Assembly: GCA_902563505.1 (NCBI GenBank)
Contig: CACEXK010000002.1
Coordinates: forward strand, 134,884 to 198,883
Length of the DNA: 64,000 nucleotides
DNA from: an uncultured Alphaproteobacteria bacterium
Lineage (GTDB): Bacteria; Pseudomonadota; Alphaproteobacteria; Methylaequorales; Methylaequoraceae
Reading direction: 5' to 3'
The notes below the pieces were generated by a model. The model had not been told where the DNA came from, searched no databases, and saw only the letters and a program-made list of their open reading frames with translations. This document shows, one piece after another, positions 5,231-21,242 of the stretch (position 1 is its first letter; every line of letters starts with the position of its first letter). A program made the translations under genes and the position numbers.

Positions 5231-6499
5231 ATGAGCGCAAAGTTTTTTTTATTTATAACATTTACAATAACTTTATTTTTCACTTTTTTTTCAGAAACAA
5301 GAGAATTATCAATAAAGCAACTTGAGGAAAGAAAAAAAGCTGATATTGAAAGAAAAAAAGAAAGAGAGAAAAGGGGAAAAAAGTCTTTTCAAAAAGAGAT
5401 TACAATTAAGAGTGAAATTGTTTTCATTTCAAAAGAAAGAGAATTACCCCCGGTACTATCTAATCTTGACCCGATTTTGGATGATGAGGGATTTTATGGT
5501 GTGAAGCTTGCCATTGAAGATAACCTGACAACTGGCAGATTTGTTGGTCATGATTACAAAGCCGAATTCCATAGAATTTTAATAGATGAGGATCTTGACA
5601 GTGAGTTTGAGAAATTAATGAAACAGGGAAAAAAATTCTTTGTTGTAGATTTTAATGAAGATGAATTGTTATCTCTAATGAAAATTCCGGGAATTGAGGA
5701 TGTTTTAATTTTTAATGTAAGAGCAAAGAATGACTCTTTGAGAAATGAAAATTGTAAGAAAAACTTTTTCCACATTCCACCTAGCTATTCTATTTTATCT
5801 GATGCCCTCACCCAGTATTTAGTAAAAAAAAAATGGAAAAAATGGTTTTTAGTAACAGGACCAGACAAAAATGATAAGCTATATTCTGATGCTCTAAAAA
5901 AATCAGCAAAAAAATTTAATGTCAAAATAAAAGAAGAAAAAATATGGGATTTCTCCTCAGATTTGCGAAGAACAGCTGGAAAAGAAGTACCAATTTTCAC
6001 AAAAGGTTCAAAGTATGATGTTCTTGTTGTTGCTGACGAAGAAGGTGAATTTGGAGAGTACCTTGCATATAGGACATGGGATCCTAGACCAATAGCAGGA
6101 ACACAGGGTTTGAAACCAAGTTCGTGGCATCGCACACATGAGCAGTGGGGGGCAACGCAGATGCAAAATAGGTTTAGAAGAGAAAGTGGAAGATGGATGA
6201 CTGAGGTTGACTATCATGCGTGGACTGCAGTAAGAGCTTTGGGAGAAACAATAACCAGAACTCAAAGTAATGATGTAAATGAAGTACAAAAGTATTTATT
6301 GGGTGAAAAATTTGGTTTGGGTGCTTACAAAGGTGTAAAGGTATCTTTTAGATCATGGAATGGTCAATTAAGACAACCAATTTTATTAGCTGCTCCGAGA
6401 TCAATGGTATCTGTTTCTCCCCAGGAGGGGTATATTCATCCAGTAAGTGAGCTTGATACTATGGGTGAAGATGAACCGGAATCTACTTGTAAATTTTAA
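5231..6499 (+). CDS. periplasmic substrate-binding protein of a PQQ-dehydrogenase-associated ABC system (PedA1-like)
   Basis: Has a signal peptide followed by a Lys/Glu-rich linker, then a type-I (Leu/Ile/Val-like) SBP body. It is the first gene of an SBP/beta-propeller/ATPase/ABC-2 permease quartet next to pqq and xoxF. Confidence 0.65.
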   Translation: MSAKFFLFITFTITLFFTFFSETRELSIKQLEERKKADIERKKEREKRGKKSFQKEITIKSEIVFISKERELPPVLSNLDPILDDEGFYGVKLAIEDNLTTGRFVGHDYKAEFHRILIDEDLDSEFEKLMKQGKKFFVVDFNEDELLSLMKIPGIEDVLIFNVRAKNDSLRNENCKKNFFHIPPSYSILSDALTQYLVKKKWKKWFLVTGPDKNDKLYSDALKKSAKKFNVKIKEEKIWDFSSDLRRTAGKEVPIFTKGSKYDVLVVADEEGEFGEYLAYRTWDPRPIAGTQGLKPSSWHRTHEQWGATQMQNRFRRESGRWMTEVDYHAWTAVRALGETITRTQSNDVNEVQKYLLGEKFGLGAYKGVKVSFRSWNGQLRQPILLAAPRSMVSVSPQEGYIHPVSELDTMGEDEPESTCKF

Positions 6500-6520: not shown

Positions 6521-7489
6521 ATGAAACTTCTTTTTTTAATAGTTGCTTTTTTTTCAATATTAAGCTTTTCAAATGTTAATGCAAATTTAGCCTACATAAC
6601 TAATGAGAAAGACAATACAGTAAGTGTAATTGATATAAAAAAGAAAAAAGTGATTAAAACCGTCAAGGTTGGTCAAAGACCTCGAGGAATCATCATGTCT
6701 AAGGATGGAAAGCTTGTTCTTATATGTGCATCAGATGATGACAGAGTAGAAGTTAGAGAAGCAGAAACTCTTAAGTTAAAATATCATTTGCCCTCGGGAC
6801 CTGATCCAGAACTGTTTATCCTATCGCCAGACGACAGTACTCTATATATAGCCAATGAGGATGATGCAATGGTAACTGTAGTTGATATGAATGATAAAAT
6901 GATAATTGATGACATACCAGTAGGAGTTGAGCCTGAAGGTATGGGACTAACAAATAATGGTAAGGTTTTAGTAAACACCTCTGAAACAACAAATATGGCT
7001 CATTTCATTGACACTAATACTCTCGAAATCATTGAAAATGTTCTAGTCGATGCGCGACCAAGAGTTGCAATGTTTACACCTGATGACAAAGAGGTATGGG
7101 TTTCTGCGGAAATAGGGGGTACTGTAAAAGTTATTAACCCAAGCTCCAAAGAAGTTACTCACACCATAGGATTTGAAATACCTGGAGTTAATGAGGAAAG
7201 CATCCAGCCAGTAGGCGTAAGACATTCAAAAGATGGTAAATACACATTTATAGCACTTGGTCCAGCTAACAGAATTGCCGTAGTCGATCAACAAACAAAA
7301 GAACTTGTTAAATATCTACTTGTTGGCCAGAGAGTTTGGCAACTAGCATTCACTCCTGATCAAAAAACTTTGTTAAGTACCAATGGAGTAAGTAATGATG
7401 TTTCTTTTATCAATGTAGACAAACTAAAAGTTGAAAAATCAGTTAAAGTTGGAAGATTTCCTTGGGGAGTTGTTATAAGCCCTAACTAG
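6521..7489 (+). CDS. YVTN-repeat beta-propeller protein, PQQ-dependent catabolism-associated (PedA2-like)
   Basis: Has a signal peptide and repeated units of the form 'Y(I/V)(T/A)NE.D..V.V(I/V)D' (LAYITNEKDNTVSVIDI, LYIANEDDAMVTVVDM, IAVVDQQT, SNDVSFINV). Confidence 0.8.
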   Translation: MKLLFLIVAFFSILSFSNVNANLAYITNEKDNTVSVIDIKKKKVIKTVKVGQRPRGIIMSKDGKLVLICASDDDRVEVREAETLKLKYHLPSGPDPELFILSPDDSTLYIANEDDAMVTVVDMNDKMIIDDIPVGVEPEGMGLTNNGKVLVNTSETTNMAHFIDTNTLEIIENVLVDARPRVAMFTPDDKEVWVSAEIGGTVKVINPSSKEVTHTIGFEIPGVNEESIQPVGVRHSKDGKYTFIALGPANRIAVVDQQTKELVKYLLVGQRVWQLAFTPDQKTLLSTNGVSNDVSFINVDKLKVEKSVKVGRFPWGVVISPN

Positions 7490-7517: not shown

Positions 7518-8243
7518 ATGACTGTTGCCCTAGAAATAAAAAATGTTTCACATAAATTTGGAGAGTTTCTGGCCCTTAACGATGTCAGCTTGAATATATT
7601 ACCAGGTGATTTTACTGTACTACTTGGATTAAACGGTGCTGGTAAGACTACTCTTTATTCATTAATAACAAGGCTATATAACAACAATTCTGGATCAATA
7701 AAAATCTATGGATTTGATGTTCGTGAAAATTCAGTAAATGCTCTTAAAAATATTGGAGTTGTATTTCAACAACCAACATTAGACCTTGACTTAAGTGTTA
7801 AAGAGAATCTTAATTATCACTCATCTCTCCATGGTATAAGTTTTGCTGAGGCCAATAACAGAATTGACAGCGAAATTGGCAGAATAAAATTAGAGGATAA
7901 AATTAAAAGTAAAGTCAGAGCATTGTCAGGTGGACAAAGGCGAAGAGTAGAGATTGCAAGGTCACTTATCCATAGACCTAAACTATTACTTTTAGATGAA
8001 CCAACAGTTGGTTTAGATATAGGTTCTAGGCAAATGATTTTAAAACATGTTAAGTCTTTGTGTAAAAAAGATAATTTAGCAGTTCTTTGGGCCACTCATT
8101 TGATTGATGAGATTGATAAGGGAGAAAAAGTAATAATTATAGATAAAGGTAAAGTCCTTGAATCTGGTGATGTTTCAATGATTGTAAGAAAAACCAAAAC
8201 AAAAAATATTAGAGACGCATTTAACAAATTAGTAGGAATTTAA
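7518..8243 (+). CDS. ABC transporter ATP-binding protein
   Basis: Has Walker A (GLNGAGKTT), the ABC signature (LSGGQRRR) and Walker B (LLLLDEPT). Confidence 0.92.
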   Translation: MTVALEIKNVSHKFGEFLALNDVSLNILPGDFTVLLGLNGAGKTTLYSLITRLYNNNSGSIKIYGFDVRENSVNALKNIGVVFQQPTLDLDLSVKENLNYHSSLHGISFAEANNRIDSEIGRIKLEDKIKSKVRALSGGQRRRVEIARSLIHRPKLLLLDEPTVGLDIGSRQMILKHVKSLCKKDNLAVLWATHLIDEIDKGEKVIIIDKGKVLESGDVSMIVRKTKTKNIRDAFNKLVGI

Positions 8244-8249
8244 ATAATA

Positions 8250-9053
8250 ATGGAACTTGTAATTTACATACGGTGTTTTAAGGGGATTGTTTTGAGAGAG
8301 GCTTTGAGGTTCATTCATCAGAAAGAGAGGTTTTTCTCTGCATTAGTTAGACCATTGGTATGGCTTGGAATTTTTGCTGCAGGATTCAGATCAGTACTTG
8401 GGGTTGCAATTATTCCCCCTTACGAAACTTATATCCCCTATGAGGTATATATTGCACCAGGTTTGATAGCAATGATTCAATTATTTAACGGAATGCAAAG
8501 TTCTTTATCTATGGTTTATGACAGAGAAATGGGCAGTATGAAAACAATGCTAGTAAGTCCTATTCCTAGGTGGTTTTTGTTAATTTCAAAATTACTAGCT
8601 GGTGTTTTCGTTTCTATACTTCAGGTTTATGCTTTTTTGATAATAGCTTCCCTGTGGGATATAATTCCTCCAATTTCTGGATATTTTACGATTCTTCCTG
8701 CTTTAATAGTTTCAGGTCTGATGTTAGGTTCTTTGGGTATGTTTTTATCTTCAGCAATTAAACAACTGGAAAACTTTGCTGGTGTTATGAATTTTGTTAT
8801 ATTTCCTATGTTTTTTGCCTCATCCGCTCTTTATCCATTATGGAAAATTGAAGAAACGAGTGAATGGCTTTATTATTTTTGTTTTTATAATCCCTTTACT
8901 TATGCTGTTGAGTGCATCAGGTTTTCTCTTTATTCTCAGATAAATATAGAATACACAATTGGGATTCTTATATTTACATTAATATTTTTGTTTTTATCGA
9001 TTTTAGGATATGATCCCGCAAGAGGAAATTTACAAAAGAAAGCAGGAAAATAA
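8250..9053 (+). CDS. ABC-2 type transporter permease (PedC-like)
   Basis: 267-aa protein with about 6 TM segments and ABC-2 permease architecture. It lies directly after the ATPase gene. Confidence 0.8.
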   Translation: MELVIYIRCFKGIVLREALRFIHQKERFFSALVRPLVWLGIFAAGFRSVLGVAIIPPYETYIPYEVYIAPGLIAMIQLFNGMQSSLSMVYDREMGSMKTMLVSPIPRWFLLISKLLAGVFVSILQVYAFLIIASLWDIIPPISGYFTILPALIVSGLMLGSLGMFLSSAIKQLENFAGVMNFVIFPMFFASSALYPLWKIEETSEWLYYFCFYNPFTYAVECIRFSLYSQINIEYTIGILIFTLIFLFLSILGYDPARGNLQKKAGK

Positions 9054-9055
9054 AT

Positions 9056-9475
9056 ATGAAAAATTTTTTAAAATTTCTATGCATAATTGTTTTTATATCT
9101 TCAGCAACTCATGCTAAGGGAGATCTTGCAATTAGGGCAAAAAAATTAGAATTAAAACTTGGTTCAGAAAAAAGTGATTATGATATGTCACAAAAAGTTT
9201 TTGAGATGGAAACTGGTAAAGCATATAGACTTGAAATTTCTAGTATGGGTTTTAAAGAATACGAAATTGAAGCAGAAGATTTTTTTAGAAATATTTGGAT
9301 TAGAAATATTGAAGTTGCAGGAATAGAGATCGATACACCTGTCATTGAAGAAATTGAATTTGAAAGAGAAGGTGAAATAGAAATAAAGTTCGTTCCAATT
9401 CGTCCGGGTGAATATGACTTTGAGATCGAAGGGCTTCAAAGTAAAGGAATGGTTGGAAAGTTTATTGTGAAATAA
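9056..9475 (+). CDS. secreted, very acidic small protein with a degenerate cupredoxin-like C-terminus (function unknown)
   Basis: Has a signal peptide (…ISSATHA/KG). The start is 2 nt after the permease stop. It contains alternating E-x-E strands (EYEIEAED, EIEFEREGEIEIKF, DFEIEG). The C-terminus PGEYDFEIEG..KGMVGKFIVK resembles a cupredoxin tail but has no Cys or His at the usual copper-ligand positions. Confidence 0.6.
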   Translation: MKNFLKFLCIIVFISSATHAKGDLAIRAKKLELKLGSEKSDYDMSQKVFEMETGKAYRLEISSMGFKEYEIEAEDFFRNIWIRNIEVAGIEIDTPVIEEIEFEREGEIEIKFVPIRPGEYDFEIEGLQSKGMVGKFIVK

Positions 9476-9494
9476 TTTTATATGGAGTGTTATT

Positions 9495-10142
9495 ATGTAC
9501 CAAAAATTTATTATATTTTTTGTTTTTACTTTGATTTTCATTTTTTCTTTTAATGTATCTGCCAATCCACCTGAAGCCGCTCCCAAAAAATGGCCTTGTG
9601 ATCAAGTTTATAATCCAAAACTGAACTTAAGTGCTATATGGCAGGGCCCACCAATTGATAACGCTTTAAAAAATTGGTGGAAAGATGACGATATAATTGA
9701 TTATGTAAATACTCTTTCAAATCCTGTTCTCAAGGAAGATGATGGACTAAGAATAATTGAAGAGTTTGCAAAAAAATACACTTACCTTGGTTTAATAAAA
9801 AAACGAGAACAAAAAGAAAAATTAGTTTTTCTTTTTGCAGGACTATATCAAAAGGCAAAAGATCGAAGAAGTAGGCAATACAAAGGCATTATAAAGTTTG
9901 TTGAAAGGCAGGATTCATTCAGAAAAGCAATTGGCAAAGCTTCTAAATTAATAAGACAATATAGAAAAGATAAAATTGATATTAAAGATCAAAGATATGT
10001 AGATGCTTCTTCTCAGTTAGAATGGAATACAAGAGTATTTGATCAAAGAACTAGACTTACAGAATATATATGTGAGGAACCAGTTTTTAACACCCAAAGA
10101 TTGGGTTATCAATCCCGAAAGATATACTTATACCTACAATAA
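9495..10142 (+). CDS. secreted hypothetical protein (basic, two Cys)
   Basis: 215-aa ORF with an N-terminal signal-like segment (…FNVSANPPEA). I recognise no family. It is the last gene before pqqA. Confidence 0.55.
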   Translation: MYQKFIIFFVFTLIFIFSFNVSANPPEAAPKKWPCDQVYNPKLNLSAIWQGPPIDNALKNWWKDDDIIDYVNTLSNPVLKEDDGLRIIEEFAKKYTYLGLIKKREQKEKLVFLFAGLYQKAKDRRSRQYKGIIKFVERQDSFRKAIGKASKLIRQYRKDKIDIKDQRYVDASSQLEWNTRVFDQRTRLTEYICEEPVFNTQRLGYQSRKIYLYLQ

Positions 10143-10256: not shown

Positions 10257-10334
10257 ATGGCTTGGACAAAACCAATGATTTCTGAGATCTCTGTAGGTCT
10301 AGAAATCAATTCTTATGCTTGCGCTGAAAAGTAG
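10257..10334 (+). CDS. pqqA: PQQ precursor peptide PqqA
   Basis: A 25-codon ORF, MAWTKPMISEISVGLEINSYACAEK, not present in the ORF track. It has the conserved W-x-x-P motif and the E-x-x-x-Y crosslinking pair (EINSY). An AAGGAG SD lies 6 nt upstream, and pqqB is directly downstream. Confidence 0.93.
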   Translation: MAWTKPMISEISVGLEINSYACAEK

Positions 10335-10354: not shown

Positions 10355-10397
10355 GCCCCTTAAGTCCAATTGGCCTTAGGGGGCCTTTTAATTTTTT
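10355..10397 (+). terminator. stem-loop plus T-tract between pqqA and pqqB (attenuator / partial terminator)
   Basis: gcccCttaag (10355-10364) pairs with cttaGggggc (10375-10384), giving 10 bp with one G-U pair. The loop is 10 nt and is followed by ctttTaaTTTTTT. Confidence 0.7.
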
Positions 10398-10433
10398 AAA
10401 ACTTTTAAGGAATTTGTTTTGGGGAATGATGAA

Positions 10434-11366
10434 ATGCTAAAAGTTTTGGTTCTAGGATCAGGTGCAGGTGGGGGGTCGCCTCAATGGAATTGTAACAGTG
10501 ATGTAAGTAAAGCTGTAAGAGGGAAAGAACCGGGAACATCTCCAAGGACTCAATCATCTATAGCTGTAACAGCAAATAATGATGAATGGTTCTTATTTAA
10601 TGCTTCACCAGACCTTGGTTCTCAAATTTTGAAAAACCAACAAATGCATCCAAAGAAATCACCAAGACATAGTCCAATCAGTGGTGTCGTTTTAACAAAT
10701 GGTGATGTTGATCATGTTGCAGGCCTTTTAACTTTAAGAGAAAGACAAAATCTTTCAATATATGCACATCCAAGAGTCCACTCTGTGCTTAGCCAAAATT
10801 CTATTTTTAATGTATTAAACCCAACATATGTGGACAGAAGGAATATGGAAATGAATAAAAAGTTTGAGTTGCAGGATAAAAATGGAAAAAATTCAGGAAT
10901 TGAAATTGAAGCATTTGAGGTTCCCGGTAAGATTGCGTTATGGTTAGAAGATGAGTCTAAGGGTGAGAATTTTGGAACCCAAGAAGGTGATACAATTGGT
11001 TTGAAAATTTCATCTAAGGATGATGCTAAATCTTTCTTCTACATACCAGCATGTGCGAAGATAACTAATGATTTGGCTAATAGAATTAAAAATTCTCAAA
11101 TGGTTTTATTCGACGGTACTCTATGGGAAAATGATGAAATGTCATCGAGTAATGTTGGAGAAAAAACTGGTCAAAGAATGGGTCATATGAATAATTCAGG
11201 TCCACAGGGTTCTATGGAAGCATTTAAAGATTTAAATGTAAAAAAAAAAATATATATACATATAAATACAACAAATCCAATACTTTTAAGCGATTCTAAA
11301 GAGCGTAAGATTGTTGAAGAAAATGATTGGGAAGTTAGTTATGATGGAATGGAGATAAAATTATGA
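10434..11366 (+). CDS. pqqB: PQQ biosynthesis protein PqqB (metallo-beta-lactamase fold)
   Basis: The N-terminus MLKVLVLGSGAGGGSPQWNC and the motif GDVDHVAGL match PqqB. I prefer ATG 10434 over the TTG at 10419 used by the ORF track. Confidence 0.92.
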   Translation: MLKVLVLGSGAGGGSPQWNCNSDVSKAVRGKEPGTSPRTQSSIAVTANNDEWFLFNASPDLGSQILKNQQMHPKKSPRHSPISGVVLTNGDVDHVAGLLTLRERQNLSIYAHPRVHSVLSQNSIFNVLNPTYVDRRNMEMNKKFELQDKNGKNSGIEIEAFEVPGKIALWLEDESKGENFGTQEGDTIGLKISSKDDAKSFFYIPACAKITNDLANRIKNSQMVLFDGTLWENDEMSSSNVGEKTGQRMGHMNNSGPQGSMEAFKDLNVKKKIYIHINTTNPILLSDSKERKIVEENDWEVSYDGMEIKL

Positions 11367-12148
11367 AAAATTTGGCTATAAAAAAAGAGTTAGAATCAAC
11401 CCCATTAACAAAAACTGAATTTGTAAAAAAATTAAGAGATATTGGAAAAGAGAGATACCATGACAATTGTAAATTTCATCATCTCTTACATAGTGGTATG
11501 CTAAATAAGGGTCAGGTTCAGGCTTGGGCATTAAACAGATATTATTATCAAATAAATATTTCAATAAAAGATTCTGCTTTAATGTCTAGAATTAAAAATC
11601 CTGAACTTAGAAGAATTTGGATTAAAAGAATCTTGGACCACGATGGTAGAAAAAATGATGAAGGGGGAATTGAAAGGTGGTACAGGTTGACCGATGGATT
11701 AGGTTTAGATAGAGATTATGTAAAGTCAACATCAGGAATTCTTCCTGCAACAAGATTTGCTGTAGACGCTTATGTAAATTTTGTTAAGGAAAAATCACTT
11801 CTAGAGGGTGTTACATCTTCTTTAACTGAACTTTTTGCCCCCAAGATTCATAAAGAAAGAATCTCCGGGATGCTTGAAAACTATGATTTCGTTAATGATA
11901 TTACAATGGCCTATTTCAAAAAGCGTGTTGATCAAGCAACCGACGATGCTGACTTTGTCTTAGACTATGCAGTTAAAAATGCTAGAACACGATTAGAACA
12001 AGAATCAGTTTGTGAGGCTTTAAAGTTTAAAACGGATGTATTATGGGTCCAACAAGATGCACTATATCATGCTTATATAAATGGACATGTTCCGCCAGGC
12101 GCTTTTATGCCAGAGGATTTTAATGACAGATATACTGAAGATAAATGA
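11363..12148 (+). CDS. pqqC: pyrroloquinoline-quinone synthase PqqC
   Basis: 261 aa with PqqC-like segments (RYHDNCKFHHLLHSG, QAWALNRYYYQ, RWYRLTDGLG). It overlaps the pqqB stop by 4 nt. Confidence 0.92.
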   Translation: MKNLAIKKELESTPLTKTEFVKKLRDIGKERYHDNCKFHHLLHSGMLNKGQVQAWALNRYYYQINISIKDSALMSRIKNPELRRIWIKRILDHDGRKNDEGGIERWYRLTDGLGLDRDYVKSTSGILPATRFAVDAYVNFVKEKSLLEGVTSSLTELFAPKIHKERISGMLENYDFVNDITMAYFKKRVDQATDDADFVLDYAVKNARTRLEQESVCEALKFKTDVLWVQQDALYHAYINGHVPPGAFMPEDFNDRYTEDK

Positions 12149-12416
12149 GAATATTATTCCAAAGTTTCCTAAACATGTTAGATTTAGGTTTAATAAGGCA
12201 AGAAAGGAATGGGTCATACTTGCGCCTGAGAGGCTTGTCAAACTTGATCCAATCGCAGTTGAAATACTTCAACTCGTTAATGGAGAAAGGGCTGTGAGAA
12301 CAATAGCAAATGAACTCAGTAAAAAGTTTAATGCGCCAGAAGATACAATTCTTGCAGATGTCAAAGAAATGTTGCAAGATTTATCAGATAAGGGTTTTAT
12401 AGAAGAAAATGGATGA
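12123..12416 (+). CDS. pqqD: PqqA-binding chaperone PqqD
   Basis: About 97 aa starting from MTDILKINENIIPKFPKHVRFRF.., with a PqqD-like core (EWVILAPERLVKLDPIAVEILQLVNGERAV). The start is uncertain, since the ORF is open from 12081. Confidence 0.85.
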   Translation: MTDILKINENIIPKFPKHVRFRFNKARKEWVILAPERLVKLDPIAVEILQLVNGERAVRTIANELSKKFNAPEDTILADVKEMLQDLSDKGFIEENG

Positions 12417-13557
12417 TGTAAAGAAACAAACAAACCTTAAAAAAGCCTCTGAGCATGGTATTCAGGCTCCATTGGCCCTATTGGCAGAATTGTCACATAG
12501 ATGTCCCCTACAGTGCCCATATTGTTCAAATCCAGTTCAACTAGAAAAAAAAACTGGAGAGTTGACTACAGATGAGTGGAAATCAGTAATAGATCAAGCT
12601 GTTGAAATGGGAATGCATCAAATACATCTTTCAGGTGGGGAACCAACTGTTAGACACGATCTTGAGGATATTGTAGAGCATTGTACAAACAAAGGCCTTT
12701 ATACAAATCTTATCACATCTGGGGTTCTTCTTAATCCAGATCGATTAAAGAAACTTGAGAAATTAGGTTTAGAACATGTGCAGTTATCTTTTCAAGATAC
12801 AGATAATGACAATGCTGATAGAATTGGTGGATTCAAAGGTGGGCATGCAAAAAAACTGGAAGTTGCGAAGTGGGTTAGAGAAGTTGAATTACCTTTAACC
12901 TGTAATTGTGTGGTTCATAGACAAAACATAGATAATTTAGAAAATTTCATTCAGATGGCCCTTGATCTTGACGCTGAAAGAGTTGAGATTGCTCAGGTTC
13001 AATACTATGGGTGGGCACTTAAAAATAGAGCTGCATTCATTCCTACTCCTGAACAACTTGACCATGCAACAGAAATAGTTGAAAAAGCGAGAATAGATTT
13101 AAAAGGAAAGTTGGTTATTGATTATGTAATTCCTGATTATTACGCAAAACATCCAAAAAACTGCATGGGAGGATGGGGCAGAAGATTTCTGAATATGAAT
13201 CCAAAAGGTGATGTTTTGCCTTGTCATGCCGCTGAAACAATTCCTCATTTGAAATTTGATAATGTTAGAGAACATAGCCTCAAATGGATCTGGGAAAATT
13301 CAGAAGCATTTAATATATATAGAGGTACTGATTGGATGCCAGAGCCATGTAAATCCTGTGATAGAAAAGAAATCGATTGGGGTGGTTGTAGATGCCAGGC
13401 TATGGCACTAACTGGTGATGCAAAAAACACCGACCCAGCTTGTTCTATTTCTCCACTTCACAGTGAAATTTTCTCAATGGCAGCTGAGGAAGCGAGAAGA
13501 GCTCCTCCAGAATTTATATACAGAAGGTATGGTGTGAGATTTAATTCACCTATCTAA
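12409..13557 (+). CDS. pqqE: radical SAM enzyme PqqE
   Basis: Has the CPLQCPYC radical-SAM cluster motif and a C-terminal SPASM-like Cys cluster (CKSCDRKEIDWGGCRCQA). Confidence 0.93.
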   Translation: MDDVKKQTNLKKASEHGIQAPLALLAELSHRCPLQCPYCSNPVQLEKKTGELTTDEWKSVIDQAVEMGMHQIHLSGGEPTVRHDLEDIVEHCTNKGLYTNLITSGVLLNPDRLKKLEKLGLEHVQLSFQDTDNDNADRIGGFKGGHAKKLEVAKWVREVELPLTCNCVVHRQNIDNLENFIQMALDLDAERVEIAQVQYYGWALKNRAAFIPTPEQLDHATEIVEKARIDLKGKLVIDYVIPDYYAKHPKNCMGGWGRRFLNMNPKGDVLPCHAAETIPHLKFDNVREHSLKWIWENSEAFNIYRGTDWMPEPCKSCDRKEIDWGGCRCQAMALTGDAKNTDPACSISPLHSEIFSMAAEEARRAPPEFIYRRYGVRFNSPI

Positions 13558-14425
13558 CAGGTGGTCTTCCCTTTATTAGAGCATCGGTAGTTGTTTCATC
13601 CGCTTTTTTTCTTTTTCCTGGTCTTAGGCTCAGCACAGGAATGTTATGCTTAGCCAATATTTTGTCTATATCTTTTTGATTCTCTTTAATAAATTTATTT
13701 AATTTCTTCTTCCAATCTGTTTCACCATCTCTAACACCCATTGTGGTATAGTAATCCATTCTTCCCCAACCTTGATCTGTTGTTTCTAAAGGGATAAAAA
13801 CATATTTTTCTTTAGTATAGCCTTTTTTATTTAAGTAATGAGTTGCAATTGGACCTGACATAAATGCTATATCAACAAGGCCGTCAATCATATCTTCGAT
13901 CATTGTTTCTCCAATTATTGCTCTTCTTGGGTCAAATGTTAGGTTGTATGGCCTTACTCTTCCCATTAGGTTAAATCTTTGTAATACAAAGGTTGGAGGA
14001 GTTCCAGCTTGAACACCAATGCTCAGTTCTGCAAGTTGAGGATGATTGGGCCTATCAACTTCAATACCGCTATCTTTAAGGTATACCATTCCGTAGGCCC
14101 ACCTCATGTATGGAACTGTATTTAAAACTAAGTCATTATTTGCTGTTATTCCAATAATTATATCACATTTTTTCTTGTTCAAAGTGTTACGAACATACCC
14201 AATAACTTGAGGAAAGAATTCGTAAACAACGGGTATACCTAGTTTTTCTCCTAATAGCTTAGCAATATCATTTTCATAACCTTCCTCTTTTTCATTTGAG
14301 AAAGGGAGGTTGGATGGGTCTGCACAAACTCTCAAATTTTCGGTATCAACAGCCTCTATTGCGGTCTCTCTAGCTTTGGGGTTAGACACTACAATAAGCA
14401 TAAAAAGAACAACAAAAAGTTTCAT
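13550..14425 (-). CDS. xoxJ: MoxJ/XoxJ-type periplasmic binding protein associated with methanol dehydrogenase
   Basis: Has a signal peptide and an SBP fold with MxaJ-like segments (LRVCADPSNLPFSNEKEEGYENDIAKLL). It is the last gene of xoxF-G-J. Its stop overlaps the pqqE stop by 8 nt, with the two genes convergent. Confidence 0.8.
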   Translation of the reverse strand: MKLFVVLFMLIVVSNPKARETAIEAVDTENLRVCADPSNLPFSNEKEEGYENDIAKLLGEKLGIPVVYEFFPQVIGYVRNTLNKKKCDIIIGITANNDLVLNTVPYMRWAYGMVYLKDSGIEVDRPNHPQLAELSIGVQAGTPPTFVLQRFNLMGRVRPYNLTFDPRRAIIGETMIEDMIDGLVDIAFMSGPIATHYLNKKGYTKEKYVFIPLETTDQGWGRMDYYTTMGVRDGETDWKKKLNKFIKENQKDIDKILAKHNIPVLSLRPGKRKKADETTTDALIKGRPPVR

Positions 14426-14467: not shown

Positions 14468-15079
14468 TTATTCTTTAAACTTTGGAAGTTTTGGAAGTCT
14501 AACACCTCTTCTAATCTTACCATCAGCTCTTGCTTTTACATATCTATAGATATCATTGATATGTGGTTCAACATTGGTATTTTCTCCAAAAGCGGGCATC
14601 ACATTTCCTTCTTGTGCACCTTCGGCAACACCTTTACCATTTGCTATAATAGTGTAGAAATCCATATAGTCTAAACCATTCTTAACAGACATCATTAATG
14701 ATGGTGCGTAGGTACTCCCCATAGCATCAGGTCCATGACAAACATGACATTCTGCATGATAAGCTCTCCAACCTTTGTAAGTCGAGAAGTCCATCCATCC
14801 ATATTTCATCTCTACAAGGTCATCATTTGCTCTGCATTCATCCATATCTTCATCTGAGGCAAAGTCAACAGCTTGTTCCTTACAATAAATTTGAATAAGG
14901 TTTAATGGTTTTTCGGTAGAGGGATCGAGTCTGTCTCCTTCGCCGTATGTTACATAGTATGTAGGATCGTCATTTTCGTCAAACTGAGGTTCAACTGCAT
15001 CTGGTGTAGGCATTGCAATTGATTTGCCTGCAACAAACACTGAAGCGATTAAACTAGTTAAAATTGTTTTTTTTGTCAT
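14468..15079 (-). CDS. xoxG: c-type cytochrome (cytochrome cL-like, XoxG)
   Basis: Has a signal peptide and a single heme motif, CHVCHG. It lies downstream of xoxF. ATG 15079 is preceded by a GGTGGA SD, whereas the ORF track starts at TTG 15094. Confidence 0.85.
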   Translation of the reverse strand: MTKKTILTSLIASVFVAGKSIAMPTPDAVEPQFDENDDPTYYVTYGEGDRLDPSTEKPLNLIQIYCKEQAVDFASDEDMDECRANDDLVEMKYGWMDFSTYKGWRAYHAECHVCHGPDAMGSTYAPSLMMSVKNGLDYMDFYTIIANGKGVAEGAQEGNVMPAFGENTNVEPHINDIYRYVKARADGKIRRGVRLPKLPKFKE

Positions 15080-15173
15080 ATTTATTCCACCCAATAAATG
15101 TTCTTATTTATTAATATATATATTAGTATTTATTATTCTAAATTCCAGAAAAAACTAAATAATTTTCTTTTAC

Positions 15174-15230: not shown

Positions 15231-17063
15231 CTACGGTAGAGAGAAGACAGTCAATACGCCACCAAGAGCAGTGTGGTTATGTAGTGCAGAGTATGCACCC
15301 ACAGCACCAAGACCTGCAGTTGGGTCAGTAAGACCAGCAGCTAGACCAATTCCAGCCCAACCACCAACGCCTGATAGGATACCAACATATTGCTTACCTT
15401 TATGTTTGTAAGACATGAAGTTACCGATAATACCAGATGGTGTTTTGAACTTGAATAGTTCTTTACCAGTTTTACTTTCAACAGCTTTAGCATAACCTTC
15501 TAATGTTCCATAGAATGTAATACCACCAGCTGTTGCCATAGCACCAGACCATACAGAGAATGGCTCAGGGTTAGACCATACGATCTTACCTTTATCAGCA
15601 TCCCATGCGATCATGTTACCAAGATGAGTTCCGCCTGGAGCTGGGTACATAGATAATGTAGCACCAACATAAGCGTTACCAGCTACGTAATCAACTTTGA
15701 ATGGTTCGTAGTCCATACAAACATGGTTTGTTGGAACCATAAATAAACCAGAAAGTCTATCGTAAGCAGCAGGCTGTTGGTCTTTAGAACCTAGAGCCGC
15801 TGGGCAGATGTTAGTAGTGTTAACATCTTCACCTTGGTGTGCAGTTGAATATCTGTCTTGTACTTGCGGACGACCAGTTTTCATATCAACATGAGTTGCC
15901 CAGTTCACTGCTGGATCATATTTTTCAGCAACAAGTAGTTCACCTGAAGCTCTATCCATAGTGTAAGCAAATCCGTTTCTGTCGAAGTGCACAAGTGCTT
16001 GACGGTTTTTACCTTTAACTTTCATGTCAACAAGAATCATCTCGTTAACACCGTCGTAATCCCACTCATCATATGGAGTCATTTGATATAACCATTTAGC
16101 CATACCATTGTCTGGGTTACGAGCGTTAATCGTCATAGACCATTTGTTGTCACCAGGACGAACAACTGGGTTCCATGTTGATGGGTTACCTGTACCGTAG
16201 TACAAAGTATTTAATTTAGAGTCATAACCGTAGAAACCCCAAATTGAACCACCACCGATTTTCCATGCATCACCAGGCCAAGTTTTCAAAGATGAATCTT
16301 TACCAATTGGTTTTAACATAGAAGTAGTTTTGTTTGGATCAACAAGCATATCCTTATCTGGACCCATGCTGTATGCTCTCCAAAGTCTCTTACCACTGTT
16401 GATGTCATAACTTGTCCAGTTACATCTAACACCAAATTCAGCACCAGAACAACCAACACCTACAGTATCTTTGATAATGAAAGGTTGACCTGAACCAGTT
16501 GATGCAGAAACACCATATTTACCAGTACCAGCGTGTAGATTTGTAGTAATCCACTTTTCTTTACCAGTTTTAGCGTCTAATGCAATTACTGAAGTATCAG
16601 CAGCGTGAAGAACGATTGTACCATTTGGATGATAGTTAACACCACGGTTAACGTTATCACAACACATAACTGAGATAACTCTATCCATAGTTTCACCACC
16701 TGGGTACTTACCACCTTTTACAGGGTTGTACTTCCAAATGATTCTTTGGTCATCATTAAGATCTAAAGCGTACACGATATTTGGGATAGCAGTATGTACA
16801 TACATTGTATCACCAATAACAAGTGGACCACCTTCGTGACCTCTTAAAACACCAGTAGAAAAAGTCCATGCGACTTTTAAGCTACCAACATTACTTTTGT
16901 TGATTTGATCCAAAGTTGTGTAACGATGTCCAGCGTAATCACCAGACTGTTGTACCCATTGACTAGGATCTTTCATCATTTTTTCTAGCTTAGAATTAGC
17001 ACTTACTGCAAGAGGAAGAGCTAAAGCAGCAGAAGCGATGATGCTTTTTTTCAAAATACTCAT
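15231..17063 (-). CDS. xoxF: PQQ-dependent methanol dehydrogenase, XoxF type (lanthanide-dependent signature)
   Basis: 610 aa with a signal peptide. Has the vicinal Cys pair ([10 protein letters not shown]) and tryptophan-docking propeller repeats. The segment [10 protein letters not shown] carries D-Y-D, where MxaF-type enzymes have D-x-A. An AAGGAG SD is present. Confidence 0.95.
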
Positions 17064-17517: not shown

Positions 17518-18345
17518 ATGAAATTAAACAATATTTTTTTCAAATTTTTTATATTATTTTCGCTAGTTAATTTTAGTTCAAATACATATTCTAAGGATAA
17601 ACTTCCTGAGCCAGTAGTATGGGATACAGATCTCAAAGAATTTTTCTTTGATAATGATGAAATACAAGACGGCTCAAAAATCTTTTCTTTAGAAACTCCA
17701 TACAGAGCTCTTGATGCAGCTATAGTTCCAATAACAGTAAAATTTAAACAAAAACAATCAGAAAACAATTATGTCAAATCATTATCATTAATTATTGATG
17801 AAAATCCATCTCCTCTGGTAGGGAAGTTCGAATTTACACCAAAAATGGGAGACCCTTCATTCACAACAAGAATCAGAGTTGATAAATATACCTATGTAAG
17901 GGCAGTTATTGAAATGAATGATAGTAAGAAATTTATGGTTGCTAATTATGTAAAAGCTGCAGGTGGTTGCTCTGCCCCAGCTCTTGCTGACATGGATTCA
18001 ATAATGGCAAGATTAGGTAAAATGAAAATGAAATTTATAAAAACAGGGAAAAAAGGCGAGATAAATAAAGCGCAATTTTTAATCAGTCACCCGAACTATT
18101 CAGGACTTCAGTTTAACCAGCTAACCAGGTCGGAAATACCCGCCCATTTTGTAAACTATATAAGTATAGAACAGGATGGTAACTTGATATTTCAGGCTAA
18201 TCCAGATATCTCTTTATCTGAAGACCCATCATTCACCTTCAATTATATTGACTCTGGTGGACCACTTAAGGTAACAGTAAAAGATAGTGATGGTTTGGAT
18301 TTTGCGGGTGAATTTCCAACATCCAATATTGTATCAGCAAAATAG
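17518..18345 (+). CDS. SoxY-SoxZ fusion, quinoprotein-dehydrogenase-associated SoxYZ-like carrier protein
   Basis: Has a signal peptide. The N-terminal half is SoxY-like (ALDAAIVPITVKF, IIDENPSPLVGKFEF, and it ends in VKAAGGCSAP, which contains the carrier-Cys GGC motif). The C-terminal half is SoxZ-like (FLISHPNYSG, IPAHFVNYISIEQDG, ISLSEDPSFTF, VTVKDSDG). Confidence 0.8.
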   Translation: MKLNNIFFKFFILFSLVNFSSNTYSKDKLPEPVVWDTDLKEFFFDNDEIQDGSKIFSLETPYRALDAAIVPITVKFKQKQSENNYVKSLSLIIDENPSPLVGKFEFTPKMGDPSFTTRIRVDKYTYVRAVIEMNDSKKFMVANYVKAAGGCSAPALADMDSIMARLGKMKMKFIKTGKKGEINKAQFLISHPNYSGLQFNQLTRSEIPAHFVNYISIEQDGNLIFQANPDISLSEDPSFTFNYIDSGGPLKVTVKDSDGLDFAGEFPTSNIVSAK

Positions 18346-18354
18346 AAATTTAAA

Positions 18355-18690
18355 TTAAAAACATTCAAGTTCAGATGCCGCTTGAGCTCTTAATAGTTTA
18401 TCCATCCTCTCTTTGGATAGACCAACGCTTTTAAAGGCTTCTTCTCGTGGACTTGCTCCCAGTTGAAGTCTAGCTATTGCTTCAGCCTGAGCATACTCTT
18501 CGTAATTAATTCTTTTTGCAATTTCATCAATAGCACATGAACATTTTGCCATAAAATCCCTATTTGATTCATTGGAACTCATGCAGGCAAAAACGAATTC
18601 TGATCTTGCAACTGTCGGGAAATCATTGGATTCTGCAGAATCTATAGATATCATGTAACTAATGAAAATAAAAATTAATCTTTTAAACAT
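18355..18690 (-). CDS. secreted hypothetical protein, 4 Cys
   Basis: 111 aa with a signal-like N-terminus. Cysteines occur at FACM, KCSC and the C-terminal ELECF. It lies 2 nt downstream of the 276-aa ORF. Confidence 0.5.
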   Translation of the reverse strand: MFKRLIFIFISYMISIDSAESNDFPTVARSEFVFACMSSNESNRDFMAKCSCAIDEIAKRINYEEYAQAEAIARLQLGASPREEAFKSVGLSKERMDKLLRAQAASELECF

Positions 18691-18692
18691 AA

Positions 18693-19523
18693 TTAGCTGT
18701 CTCCTTCCTTTCTGTTCTTAAATTCATCTCTAAGTTGTTTATTGGTTCTCATACCCTGAAATTCAAGCGTTTCTTTAACCATATCATCGGGATCTTCTAA
18801 ATCTTTAATAAATGTTTCAATTTTAAAAATATATCCAGGAATTTCCTTACTCATTAAAACTACAAACTTTTTAGTTTTGTAGCGTGAAACTCTTCTTTTT
18901 AATTCTGTTTTCATAAAAGGTTGAAATGAAATTTGTTGACCAGAATATTTTTTTCCATTGAAATCGAAATCGATATTTTCAACATTAGTTGCAGCAATAG
19001 TATGCCTTATTCTACTCCTAAAAAATAATGCATTCCCGCCTGTGAGCCTTTGCATATCTCTTGAGTCGCGTTCGAAGAAAAGCATAAAAACAGGGTTACC
19101 TTTTGCCCCTATCTGAGGAGGAAACCTGACTTTATTTCTTCCCTTTAAATATCGGAAGGTAATGTGTTTGGTATTATCATCGTCAATTTTAACTACATTT
19201 AAAACTACATTACCAATAAAATTGTCTTCTCTTGAAGACTCCTTTTTAAACTTATAATAAATTCTCGATGGTTCTGTAATTGAGCTTAAGTGTTCATCTA
19301 TGAATAATGCAATATTTGCTGATGACATTTCTTTTAATAAGCCGGCCTTGAATTCCTCAGTCCCCCACTTAGCTCTTTTTTCTTCTGCATCTTCAGCTTT
19401 TGAAAAATCATTTTCAATGTTAATTGTTTCTTGAGCATTTGAAGTTGAAACAAGAAATGCAACAGCAAAAATCAACAAAAGAAATTTTTTTATAAAAATA
19501 CTCATTTTATTTATAAAATTCAT
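18693..19523 (-). CDS. secreted hypothetical protein
   Basis: 276 aa with a clear signal peptide (…LVSTSNA/QE). I recognise no family. It is divergent from the folB-like operon. Confidence 0.55.
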   Translation of the reverse strand: MNFINKMSIFIKKFLLLIFAVAFLVSTSNAQETINIENDFSKAEDAEEKRAKWGTEEFKAGLLKEMSSANIALFIDEHLSSITEPSRIYYKFKKESSREDNFIGNVVLNVVKIDDDNTKHITFRYLKGRNKVRFPPQIGAKGNPVFMLFFERDSRDMQRLTGGNALFFRSRIRHTIAATNVENIDFDFNGKKYSGQQISFQPFMKTELKRRVSRYKTKKFVVLMSKEIPGYIFKIETFIKDLEDPDDMVKETLEFQGMRTNKQLRDEFKNRKEGDS

Positions 19524-19575: not shown

Positions 19576-20067
19576 ATGAAAAATAAAATAAAAAATATAT
19601 CAGTTATATCCACTGGCTCATGGGTCCCTTCCGACCTACAAAATCAGGATTTGAAATTTAAAAGATATAAAGTTTTTATAAAAAAACTTATTTTGGATGC
19701 TTCTATTGGAATACATGAGCACGAAAAGAAAAAAAAACAAAAGATTGCTATATCTCTTGAATTGGATGTAAAAGATAATATTTCTGAAGTAAAACAAAAA
19801 ATTGAAAACTTTGTTTCTTATGAAATAATAATAAAAAACATTAAAAAATTAGTTTCGAAGAAACATATTGATTTGCTTGAAACTTTAGGAGAGAAAATAC
19901 TAAAAATTTGTTTTGAAGATGAGAGGATCTTCTCTATTAAATTGAAACTAGAAAAAATTGAGGTTTTCAAGGAGACGGATAGCGTTGGAATAGAGATATT
20001 CCGAGAAAAAATTAACCCAAATAATCTTAATTACAATTCAAGAAATGTGTCTAGGTTAAAAGAATAA
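19576..20067 (+). CDS. dihydroneopterin aldolase-family protein (H4MPT pterin branch)
   Basis: Has a FolB-like core (FIKKLILDASIGIHEHEKKKKQKIAISLELDV ... VSYEII...) with an N-terminal extension of about 30 aa. It is the first gene of the cofactor operon. Confidence 0.7.
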   Translation: MKNKIKNISVISTGSWVPSDLQNQDLKFKRYKVFIKKLILDASIGIHEHEKKKKQKIAISLELDVKDNISEVKQKIENFVSYEIIIKNIKKLVSKKHIDLLETLGEKILKICFEDERIFSIKLKLEKIEVFKETDSVGIEIFREKINPNNLNYNSRNVSRLKE

Positions 20068-20076
20068 CATTCGGAT

Positions 20077-20682
20077 ATGTGGATTGTTAAAATAGGTGGA
20101 AGTTGGATTAAAAACCCTAAACTTGAAACCTTAATAAACCTTTTACAAAAATTTGTTAAAAAAAAAATTGTAATTGTAACTGGTGGTGGAATTATTTCAG
20201 ATTCCATAAGAGATATTTACAACACAATTAATATGTCTGAGGAAAATGCTAATTTTCTTGCCCTCAAAGCGACAGAAATTTTCGCCCACTTATTATTATT
20301 AAAAAATAAAAATTTAAATTTGACTTCAGACAAAAAAAAATTTTTAAAAAACAAAATAAATATTTGGCTCCCTTCTGAAAAACTGAAAGTTTCTAAAGAT
20401 TTTGAAAAAACCTGGGAATCTACCTCAGATTCAGTTGCTTCTTGGCTTTATGGCACTACATTTTCAGAAGGTATTTTATTTGTAAAATCTTTAGAACTTT
20501 CAAGAAAAAAGAATTATGATTTAACCGAATTGCAGAATAAAGGAATCTTGGATAGAAATTTAAAAAAATATTTAAAAGGAAAAAATAATCTAAAAATAAT
20601 TGGACCTGAATTAATTGATTTATTGAGTAAAAATTATGAATGGGAAATACTTGAATCAAAATTTAGTAAAATAAATTTGTAA
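20077..20682 (+). CDS. amino-acid-kinase-fold protein, MfnE-like (furan-methyl phosphate kinase candidate)
   Basis: The N-terminus MWIVKIGGS...VIVTGGG is typical of the Asp/Glu/uridylate kinase fold. The gene is clustered with mfnB/mfnF-like genes. Confidence 0.6.
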   Translation: MWIVKIGGSWIKNPKLETLINLLQKFVKKKIVIVTGGGIISDSIRDIYNTINMSEENANFLALKATEIFAHLLLLKNKNLNLTSDKKKFLKNKINIWLPSEKLKVSKDFEKTWESTSDSVASWLYGTTFSEGILFVKSLELSRKKNYDLTELQNKGILDRNLKKYLKGKNNLKIIGPELIDLLSKNYEWEILESKFSKINL

Positions 20683-20684
20683 GA

Positions 20685-21242
20685 ATGAATAGTAAAAAAA
20701 TAAAAAAAAAATGGGCTTGGGTTTTAACTGGGTCTGGTCACTTTTTTAATGAAACGATCGAACTCATTAATTCGATTGGAGAAGTAGATTTGTTTATCTC
20801 AAAAGCTGCAGAGGAGGTTTTAGTGATGTACAAGAAAAGTAAAAAAATTTCTGAACAAATTAAAATTTATAAAGATAATTCTTCAAGTTCTGTCTCAGTG
20901 GGAAAATTCTACAAAGGTCATTATCATACTTTGGTGATGGGGCCGACTTCAAGTAATACGGTCGCTAAATGTGTCTACGGGATTTCTGACAATCTTGCTA
21001 CAAACATTTTTGCTCAGGCTGGAAAATGCAAGGTAATGTGTATTTTTTTTCCATGTGATACTGCTCCTGAGTTGAAAACTCTTGCTCCTGGAGGAATTGT
21101 GGATGTTTATCCTAGAAAAATTGATTTGGATAATGTAAGGAAATTAAAAAAATTTTCTGATACAGATGTTGTTATGAGTTTTAATGATTTAAAAAAAAAT
21201 ATTGAGAAAAGAAAAAAATGCATGAAAAAATCCTATTTCTAA
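20685..21242 (+). CDS. flavoprotein (AfpA/DmrB-like; candidate dihydromethanopterin reductase)
   Basis: 185 aa. The motifs WAWVLTGSGHFF and GPTSSNTVAKC resemble the small flavoprotein (CoaC-like) family found in H4MPT clusters. Confidence 0.6.
   Translation: MNSKKIKKKWAWVLTGSGHFFNETIELINSIGEVDLFISKAAEEVLVMYKKSKKISEQIKIYKDNSSSSVSVGKFYKGHYHTLVMGPTSSNTVAKCVYGISDNLATNIFAQAGKCKVMCIFFPCDTAPELKTLAPGGIVDVYPRKIDLDNVRKLKKFSDTDVVMSFNDLKKNIEKRKKCMKKSYF

Follow-up and report, generated by a model that had tools for sequence, protein, structure and literature searches.

A 64-kb stretch of DNA from an uncultured alphaproteobacterium (contig CACEXK010000002.1; 'the window' below) carries, at 9056-9475 of the forward strand, a gene for a predicted periplasmic protein of cupredoxin fold that lacks copper ligands and is of the LutC type, as judged from its translation, from structure prediction with AlphaFold2, from structure comparison with Foldseek and from a family profile. 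The gene directly follows those of a transporter of the PedA1A2BC (Lut) kind. Our best explanation, to which we assign a probability of about 0.45, is that the encoded protein is an auxiliary, copper-less cupredoxin of Lut/PedA1A2BC lanthanide uptake, with a weak cation site made of surface carboxylates.

The protein, its fold and its former copper site

The open reading frame (ORF) at 9056-9475 (+) comprises 139 codons (MKNFLKFLCIIVFISSATHAKGDLAIR...KGMVGKFIVK). Its ATG start codon at 9056 follows the TAA stop codon of pedC (9051-9053) after a gap of 2 nucleotides, and an AGGA is found 9 nucleotides upstream of the start. Residues 1-20 (MKNFLKFLCIIVFISSATHA; 9056-9115, +) have the features of a Sec-type signal peptide, with a basic N-region, a hydrophobic core and a terminal ..THA. 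Conservation was calculated over 131 non-redundant full-length family members (less than 70% identity); Ala20 is conserved in 81% of them and stands directly before a conserved G-[DN]-L-A motif, and the signal peptide would be cleaved after this residue. The mature chain thus defined has no His, no Cys, four Met and a net charge of -9. A reading as lipoprotein was rejected from the sequence alone, given that Cys9 has no preceding lipobox, and an antisense ORF at 9188-9586 was taken as spurious. The sequence-only reading, made previously on this DNA, had already described a secreted protein of 139 residues starting 2 nucleotides past the stop of the permease gene, and both statements proved correct.

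The same reading had proposed a cupredoxin-like fold with replaced copper ligands, partly from the resemblance of the C-terminus to a cupredoxin tail. The protein indeed retains a C-terminal motif of this kind, ..PG.Y.F....G....GM.G...V, and structure prediction bears out the fold. An AlphaFold2 model made from a shallow alignment of 20 close SAR11-like sequences was unusable (mean predicted local distance difference test score, pLDDT, 43.9). This alignment was replaced by one of 48 diverse homologs, and the model then reached a pLDDT of 90.9 and a predicted template modelling score of 0.79. Apart from a short helix at residues 74-78, the modelled domain is all beta. Each of the 50 top-ranking Foldseek matches in the PDB was a copper-protein (cupredoxin) domain, with a probability of 1.00. 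The best of them was 4hcf, of the Cupredoxin_1 family (E = 2e-7, TM-score 0.81 normalised to the matched PDB chain); others included plastocyanins, a subunit chain of cytochrome ba3 oxidase, laccase and nitrite reductase domains, AcoP and auracyanin. On the basis of this model we confidently assign the protein to the cupredoxin Greek-key beta-sandwiches.

Sequence profiles recognise the fold poorly. The match to Pfam Cupredoxin_1 (PF13473) scores 17.4 bits (E = 0.0047), under the gathering threshold of 27 bits, and among the 48 diverse family members only 8 match PF13473 at E of 0.01 or less. A weak, sub-threshold match to the plastocyanin model TIGR02656 was also seen, and a profile search of the PDB sequences returned nothing except filamin immunoglobulin-repeat noise (E of 0.06 or more). 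Sub-threshold Pfam matches to EhbP, DUF3244 and Y_Y_Y were discarded as noise. With 4hcf, a single-domain blue-copper protein of the PF13473 family from Bacillus anthracis, the target shares the Greek-key beta-sandwich and the C-terminal motif; it differs from PF13473 proteins in lacking the His-Cys-His ligands, in having a helix-plus-hairpin insertion between strands (residues 74-92 of the predicted fold), which is specific to its clade, and in standing in a lanthanide and pyrroloquinoline quinone (PQQ) context rather than a copper context.

Alignment to homologs that retain copper (C..GH...GM) locates the remains of the metal site in a degenerate ligand loop, I124-E-G-L127-Q-S-K-G-M132 (9425-9451, +), and at Y69, whose codon together with that of E68 lies at 9257-9262 (+). 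The first His ligand is replaced by Y69, the Cys by I124 (with a deletion of two residues) and the second His by L127; only M132 is kept. As the type-1 site is destroyed in this way, a role in copper binding or electron transfer is not expected, and on this sequence evidence we are close to certain that the target is not a copper protein.

The loss extends to nearly the whole family. A profile search against 1.84 billion cluster representatives yielded 340 family representatives at 50% identity (E of 0.001 or less). Across the 131-member set, position 69 is Y, F, L, C or V, position 124 is V, I, A or C, position 127 is L, Y or F, and position 132 is M, L, V or F. The full His-Cys-His-Met set is kept in only three members, leaving 128 without a complete one. 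Database names ignore this: members are called 'copper-binding protein' at NCBI and 'uncharacterized cupredoxin-like copper-binding protein' at IMG. For the target the NCBI name is contradicted by its sequence, and for the 128 members it is very probably wrong as well and masks the lanthanide context. In 16 of the 131 members a Cys is found at both the first His and the Cys ligand positions (..KEC.., ..W.C..; for example P0137 and a Bosea homolog, L028, 3183-3677, minus strand). These two residues probably form a disulfide filling the former copper site, or less probably a thiolate metal site.

The family profile also recovers tandem cupredoxins with intact sites (K-H...C-x-x-G-H-x-x-x-G-M; for example P0133, E = 8e-32). 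These relatives share the family insertion, an A-E-E-F-Y helix and a G-E-x-K hairpin, which places the origin of the copper-less family in one particular clade of genuine copper cupredoxins. They are arrays of two to four cupredoxin domains (P0133, P0144, P0179, P0181, P0219 and others). P0133 matches, over the whole protein, Pfam PF23509 (MSMEG_3727, PQQ-associated), a hint that the copper-bearing ancestors may already have been linked to PQQ systems. The copper-less gene can itself be duplicated: tandem copies were found on the Alloyangia pacifica plasmid (L002, 9419-9847 and 9935-10348) and at locus L123, and a protein of 258 residues, P0127, is a two-domain fusion of copper-less cupredoxins.

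Linkage to the PedA1A2BC (Lut) transporter

Upstream of the target, on the same strand, lie genes for a substrate-binding protein of the pedA1/lutA type (5231-6499, +; TIGR03863, 471 bits for a cut-off of 413.6), a YVTN beta-propeller protein of the pedA2/lutB type (6521-7489, +; TIGR03866, 480.6 bits), an ATP-binding cassette (ABC) ATPase of the pedB/lutE type (7518-8243, +; TIGR03864, 333 bits) and an ABC-2 permease of the pedC/lutF type (8250-9053, +; TIGR03861, 401 bits). All four score over the curated NCBIfam cut-offs for the ABC system associated with PQQ dehydrogenases. PedA1A2BC is needed for the lanthanide-dependent growth of P. putida (PMC6839425), and PedA1, PedA2, PedB and PedC correspond to LutA, LutB, LutE and LutF of Methylorubrum extorquens (PMC7391723).

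A survey of one genome per species was carried out with a degenerate DNA pattern for G-x5-FVPIRPG-x-[YF]. This pattern covers only the part of the family that bears the motif (23 of 150 representatives), and the survey is biased towards that part. It returned 120 loci, of which 114 had a true homolog. A gene for PedA1, PedA2, PedB or PedC was present in the same, arbitrarily framed 8-kb block at 91 of the 114 loci (80%), a lower bound, as many matches fell at block edges or on short contigs. The sequence-only reading had asked whether homologs always neighbour xoxF or pedA1A2BC; in the survey most of them do lie near Ped genes and are not scattered. PedA2 was the nearest Ped gene at 44 of the 91 loci, always on the same strand.

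Plasmids and metagenomes extended the picture. On annotated plasmids of Roseomonas, Alloyangia, Paroceanicella and Paracoccus, homologs with 33 to 45% identity were found in all four cases among ABC-transporter genes and adjoining a PQQ dehydrogenase of the methanol/ethanol family, XoxF-like by tblastn; three of the four, all but that of Roseomonas, also stand beside genes of the PedA1/PedA2 type. On plasmids of Ensifer and Rhizobium, where the region is unannotated, tblastn revealed the order PedA1-PedA2-homolog-PedB-PedC-ORF215, ORF215 being a secreted protein of 215 residues whose gene follows the target in the window. A Beijerinckiaceae contig has an operon of the target type adjoining xoxFGJ. 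In total, linkage was seen at the 91 loci of the survey, at 6 plasmid loci and on 2 metagenome contigs; taking the xoxF and pqq genes into account as well, it is strong in over 100 species.

Gene order is not constant among these loci. The SAR11-like group has A1-A2-B-C-target-ORF215, many Hyphomicrobiales and the Beijerinckiaceae contigs have A1-A2-target-B-C-ORF215, and loci labelled Devosia or Maritimibacter, among others, have target-A2-A1-C. Linkage thus survives shuffling of the genes, in many orders of Alpha- and Gammaproteobacteria, which argues for a functional tie to the Ped genes. We consider it very likely that the target functions with the Ped/Lut system.

A protein of this kind is known from the lut (lanthanide utilisation and transport) cluster. 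In strain PA1 of M. extorquens, the ABC genes are interrupted by two hypothetical genes, one of them with a putative cupredoxin fold (PMC6850437), and in strain AM1 the two hypothetical genes of the cluster are lutC and lutD (PMC7391723). LutD is LanD (META1p1781), a three-helix bundle of 6.8 kDa whose gene overlaps the ATPase gene (PMC11551332); by elimination, the cupredoxin-fold gene must be lutC. Like LutC (MexAM1_META1p1780 / Mext_1848), the target is a small exported cupredoxin-fold protein inside a lutA-lutB-...-lutE-lutF (pedA1-pedA2-pedB-pedC) operon, and homologs from Hyphomicrobiales (Bosea, Beijerinckiaceae, Azorhizobium) occupy the exact slot between propeller and ATPase genes; the gene of the window differs in sitting after the permease gene and not before that of the ATPase. 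From position and fold, the target is probably the counterpart of LutC. No sequence from Methylobacterium or Methylorubrum was present among the 120 matches listed for each of the searches seeded with Bosea and Beijerinckiaceae homologs, or in the genome scan. A literature search for META1p1780 returned nothing, and we found no paper characterising the protein. On methanol with La, a lutC deletion strain shows a lag of 9 h and grows at 0.11 instead of 0.16 per hour, and lutC was not hit in a transposon screen (PMC7391723).

The slot between propeller and ATPase genes can also hold other small proteins. On the Paracoccus alcaliphilus plasmid (L004), a gene for a PepSY-domain protein (9343-9594) separates the cupredoxin homolog from the ABC ATPase gene and so stands in the slot taken by LanD in M. 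extorquens. Lanthanide binding by a PepSY protein is known from lanpepsy. Small proteins that bind lanthanides may be especially frequent at this position.

Acidic residues and possible roles

The target contains 21 Glu and 6 Asp, 27 acidic residues in all, as counted in the sequence-only reading. Its Glu content is 15.1%, compared to 6.0 +/- 1.7% for 58 long ORFs of the window (31% GC), and its acidity is unusual for its genome. The strings EYEIEAED, EIEFEREGEIEIKF and DFEIEG, quoted in that reading, are all present in the translation. The protein has 14 acid-x-acid pairs, compared to 4.6 +/- 1.9 in shuffled sequences, and none of 20,000 shuffles reached 14. The alternation is thus beyond chance; amphipathic beta-strands whose outward side is acidic would be expected to show it.

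The sequence-only reading had gone further and used the E-x-E-x-E rows as an argument for a metal site. In that form the argument is not supported. The fraction of the 131 sequences with an acidic residue is 0.06 at E70, 0.12 at E72, 0.08 at E74, 0.37 at E99, 0.38 at E107, 0.01 at E123 and 0.24 at E125. With fractions as low as these, the rows cannot be the functional site of the family, and they are largely a trait of the SAR11-like lineage. The extreme acidity, too, is partly a lineage trait: acidic residues make up 22.7% of the target, whereas the family averages 15.4 +/- 2.9%.

Conservation of an acid is seen at no more than five positions: E68 (0.85 acidic), D75 (0.76), E91 (0.92), E101 (0.91) and E103 (0.89). 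Comparison with the copper-retaining relatives singles out two of them. Position 68, acidic in 85% of the copper-less family, is Lys in most of these relatives (the K of K-H), and at position 103 they carry F, L, Q, P, K or T; in the sequences compared, E68 and E103 are the conserved acids specific to the copper-less subfamily. E103 belongs to a conserved acidic strand end and turn, E101-F-E103-R-E105 (9356-9370, +), in which positions 104 and 105 are acidic in fractions of 0.56 and 0.50 and are partly distinct to the subfamily. Position 128 is acidic in 56% of the copper-less family; here the copper-type relatives vary, several having Glu or Asp.

Position 68 directly precedes the lost first His, and position 128 directly follows the lost second His. 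The ligands of a cupredoxin all meet at a single copper atom, so that on geometric grounds residues 68 and 128 should be surface residues surrounding the former site. The turn 103-105 presumably lies at the same pole, given the topology of cupredoxins. E68, E103, E105 and E125, together with Q128, would then form a candidate carboxylate cluster. The pattern fits, but does not prove, an exchange of the soft copper site, which was buried, for a hard and exposed one with oxygen donors.

The auxiliary role that we propose would run as follows. The protein would be exported via Sec, its signal peptide cleaved after A20, and would work in the periplasm alongside PedA2, the beta-propeller, and PedA1, the binding protein. 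A weak, surface-exposed oxygen-donor site (E68, E103, E105 and E125 around the former copper site), set in a strongly acidic surface, would capture Ln3+ or a complex of lanthanide and chelator and pass it on towards the ABC importer or XoxF. The contribution would be auxiliary and not essential, in keeping with the small defect of the lutC deletion. Context, overall acidity and the subfamily-specific E68 and E103 make a lanthanide-binding hypothesis reasonable; from the sequence, direct binding of a lanthanide by the target is a tentative proposal, somewhat short of an even chance. A precedent exists in LanD, which shows that a surface site can function when it is half-saturated and consists of carboxylates alone (PMC11551332), in this case those of Glu. 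The target resembles lanmodulin (LanM, an EF-hand protein), landiscernin (LanD) and lanpepsy (LanP, a PepSY protein) in that it is small, secreted and acidic, its gene lying within or close to clusters for lanthanide uptake and xox. It differs from LanM in being all-beta, with no EF-hand motif in the protein or the window, and from LanD and LanP in being a beta-sandwich, not a three-helix bundle with a disulfide, and in having no PepSY match in Pfam. That a carboxylate cluster at the former copper pole represents a fourth structurally distinct class of natural lanthanide binders, after these three, we regard as rather unlikely.

Several observations weigh against the proposed role. About 20% of the homologs have no Ped gene in their 8-kb block. 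The PedA1A2BC cluster of P. putida has no listed cupredoxin gene (PMC12997753), which, together with the mild phenotype of lutC, suggests that the protein is dispensable; the identity with LutC is itself drawn from position and fold. Most Glu residues of the E-x-E rows are not conserved in the family, and some members are not acidic at all: the net charge is on average -5.5 +/- 4.7, with extremes of -16 and +5. Three of the conserved acids, D75, E91 and E101, recur in copper-retaining relatives and are therefore probably structural. Conserved basic positions (K55, R58, R78 and R116) could salt-bridge the acids. Finally, the closeness of E68, E103, E105 and E125 is deduced from cupredoxin topology.

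The main rival draws on some of these same points. The protein could be a metal-free adaptor or scaffold that docks on PedA2, PedA1 or the periplasmic face of the permease, its acids serving for electrostatics or salt bridges. PedA2 is its commonest immediate neighbour, the conserved acids common to copper-type relatives point to a structural role, basic residues accompany them, and acidity varies widely in the family. It is well established, moreover, that cupredoxins of the plastocyanin type dock their partners via acidic patches. NosZ, which consists of a beta-propeller plus a cupredoxin domain, offers an image of such an assembly, NosDFY being an ABC-2 system. In the Ped loci too, a YVTN propeller gene and a cupredoxin-fold gene are conserved neighbours of an ATPase and permease of the ABC-2 type; the proteins differ from NosZ in being separate polypeptides without copper centres, and the likeness is architectural only. 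A metal-free adaptor, however, leaves E68 and E103 unexplained, these positions being Lys or non-acidic in copper-type relatives. Nor was a fusion to a propeller or a binding protein found among the multi-domain relatives examined, which were tandem copper-retaining cupredoxins, one chimeric fusion to a short-chain dehydrogenase/reductase and unrelated immunoglobulin-repeat proteins. We hold metal-free docking to be less probable than the auxiliary carboxylate-site role, and the two readings that follow to be lesser still.

The protein might instead help in the maturation of PQQ dehydrogenases or in chelator handling, binding a lanthanophore-lanthanide complex, PQQ or apo-XoxF and aiding the release or insertion of the metal. 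Its gene does lie between the transporter genes and pqqA-E/xoxFGJ, the homolog on the Roseomonas plasmid adjoins pqqBC and an ABC system of a different type, and a complex of lanthanide and metallophore has been inferred to be the transported species (PMC11551332, PMC7391723). Linkage is, however, far tighter to PedA2 and PedA1 (76 and 70 of the 114 loci) than to PqqB and XoxF (11 and 5), although the 8-kb block limits this comparison, and the predicted structure suggests no ligand pocket; a helper of this kind seems improbable. The least likely reading by far, a genuine copper-binding or electron-transfer cupredoxin, has in its favour the NCBI and IMG names, the sub-threshold Cupredoxin_1 and TIGR02656 matches and the three members with a complete ligand set, and is effectively refuted for the target by a mature sequence without His or Cys and by the loss of the site in 128 of 131 members.

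The methylotrophy island, its expression and the wider meaning

The target had been placed between the ABC system and pqqA. It does adjoin pedC, as said above, but it is separated from pqqA by the gene for ORF215 (9495-10142, +), whose homologs were detected 3' of PedC by tblastn. ORF215 has two conserved Cys, in ..WPC.. and ..ICE.., and no match in Pfam, NCBIfam or the PDB. Homologs follow PedC at 25 of the 114 surveyed loci and on the Paracoccus, Ensifer and Rhizobium plasmids (tblastn). Judged from its place in the cluster, it is probably the counterpart of LutG in M. extorquens; deleting LutG causes a strong La-dependent growth defect (a 12-h lag and 0.03 per hour). ORF215 may merit more attention than the cupredoxin gene.

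Next come pqqA (10257-10334, +; 25 residues, MAWTKPMISEISVGLEINSYACAEK) and pqqB, pqqC, pqqD and pqqE (10419-13557, +), recognised from their ORFs and translations and by tblastn to the annotated Roseomonas pqqB, pqqC and pqqD. A terminator-like hairpin at 10372-10385 (+), 3' of pqqA and 5' of pqqB, is the only one between 5000 and 10500, as would be expected if pqqA transcripts exceed those of pqqB-E. On the opposite strand lie xoxJ (13550-14425), xoxG (14468-15094) and xoxF (15231-17063), identified with NCBIfam models (TIGR03871, TIGR03874 and TIGR03075 for the xoxJ/xoxG/xoxF set). XoxF carries the D-Y-D motif, which marks enzymes of the lanthanide type. Both neighbours named in the sequence-only reading, a lanthanide-linked transporter and a XoxF of the lanthanide type, are thus present.

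Further along are a SoxYZ-like carrier associated with quinoprotein dehydrogenases (17518-18345, +; TIGR04557) and matches to tetrahydromethanopterin biosynthesis (19576-22600, +), namely FolB-like, MfnE-like, dihydromethanopterin reductase-like and dihydropteroate synthase-like. Two adjacent ORFs of 111 and 276 residues with signal-like N-termini occupy the minus strand at 18355-18690 and 18693-19523. By tblastn, homologs of the first were found in Paracoccus, Ensifer, Roseomonas, a Geminicoccaceae metagenome-assembled genome and Beijerinckiaceae contigs, and homologs of the second in the last three of these sources, each time in a xox/pqq/lut locus. They may be genes of the orf6/orf7 type, for which methanol phenotypes are known from M. 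extorquens. Neither Rfam nor tRNA scanning of the window gave a match. A regular expression for EF-hand loops (D-x-D/N-x-D/N-G-x5-E, with Pro at position 2) matched no ORF of the window, and no lanM-like gene was found within its 64 kb. The window represents a compact methylotrophy island in the AT-rich DNA of a marine alphaproteobacterium. The exact target protein is present in Tara Oceans assemblies, and close homologs carry the source names of Pelagibacteraceae or Rickettsiales metagenome-assembled genomes.

Transcription was examined in marine metatranscriptomes. In four of them, the word depth over xoxF ranged from thousands to about 25,000, compared to 0 to 20 for neighbouring genes; the coverage of the target gene was 2-9x. 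The target gene, closely packed in one orientation with pedA1, pedA2, pedB, pedC and the gene for ORF215, is transcribed in the sea: metatranscriptome contigs cover 9031-9380, 9133-9283 and 9377-9581 of the target region; the first, from a related strain, spans the junction of pedC and the target, and the last, identical to the window, spans that of the target and ORF215. These junctions are consistent with co-transcription of pedC, the target and ORF215, and carry-over of DNA is possible. XoxF transcripts dominate these marine metatranscriptomes, and the organism of the window appears to depend on XoxF. Among marine xoxF5 genes, those with the highest expression have been assigned to 'Clade X', an alphaproteobacterial group that is unplaced and used to be called Rickettsiales (PMC11996626); leaving aside the clade membership of the window itself, the depth over its xoxF fits this report of high expression.

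The family had thus been noticed and named before, as LutC, in a one-line mention in the literature, and the target is a new marine member of it. What our analysis adds is the loss of the copper site across almost the whole family, two acidic positions, E68 and 103, specific to the copper-less subfamily, and a broad linkage to PedA1A2BC, in more than 100 species of several orders. These findings bear on how lanthanides pass through the periplasm to the ABC importer and XoxF. To our knowledge, biochemical work has been limited to LanM, LanD and LanP, which are absent from many bacteria that use lanthanides; linkage to the PedA1A2BC/Lut transporter is far more widespread in the present family than for these three. 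If its members bind lanthanides, they would provide a new and simple beta-sandwich scaffold for rare-earth separation. For the organism itself, should the carboxylate-site reading be true, the target would be the sole small periplasmic candidate for lanthanide handling found in the 64-kb window of a streamlined marine methylotroph. The reliance of this organism on XoxF, and the lack of any lanM-like gene found in the window, make the protein a tractable entry point.

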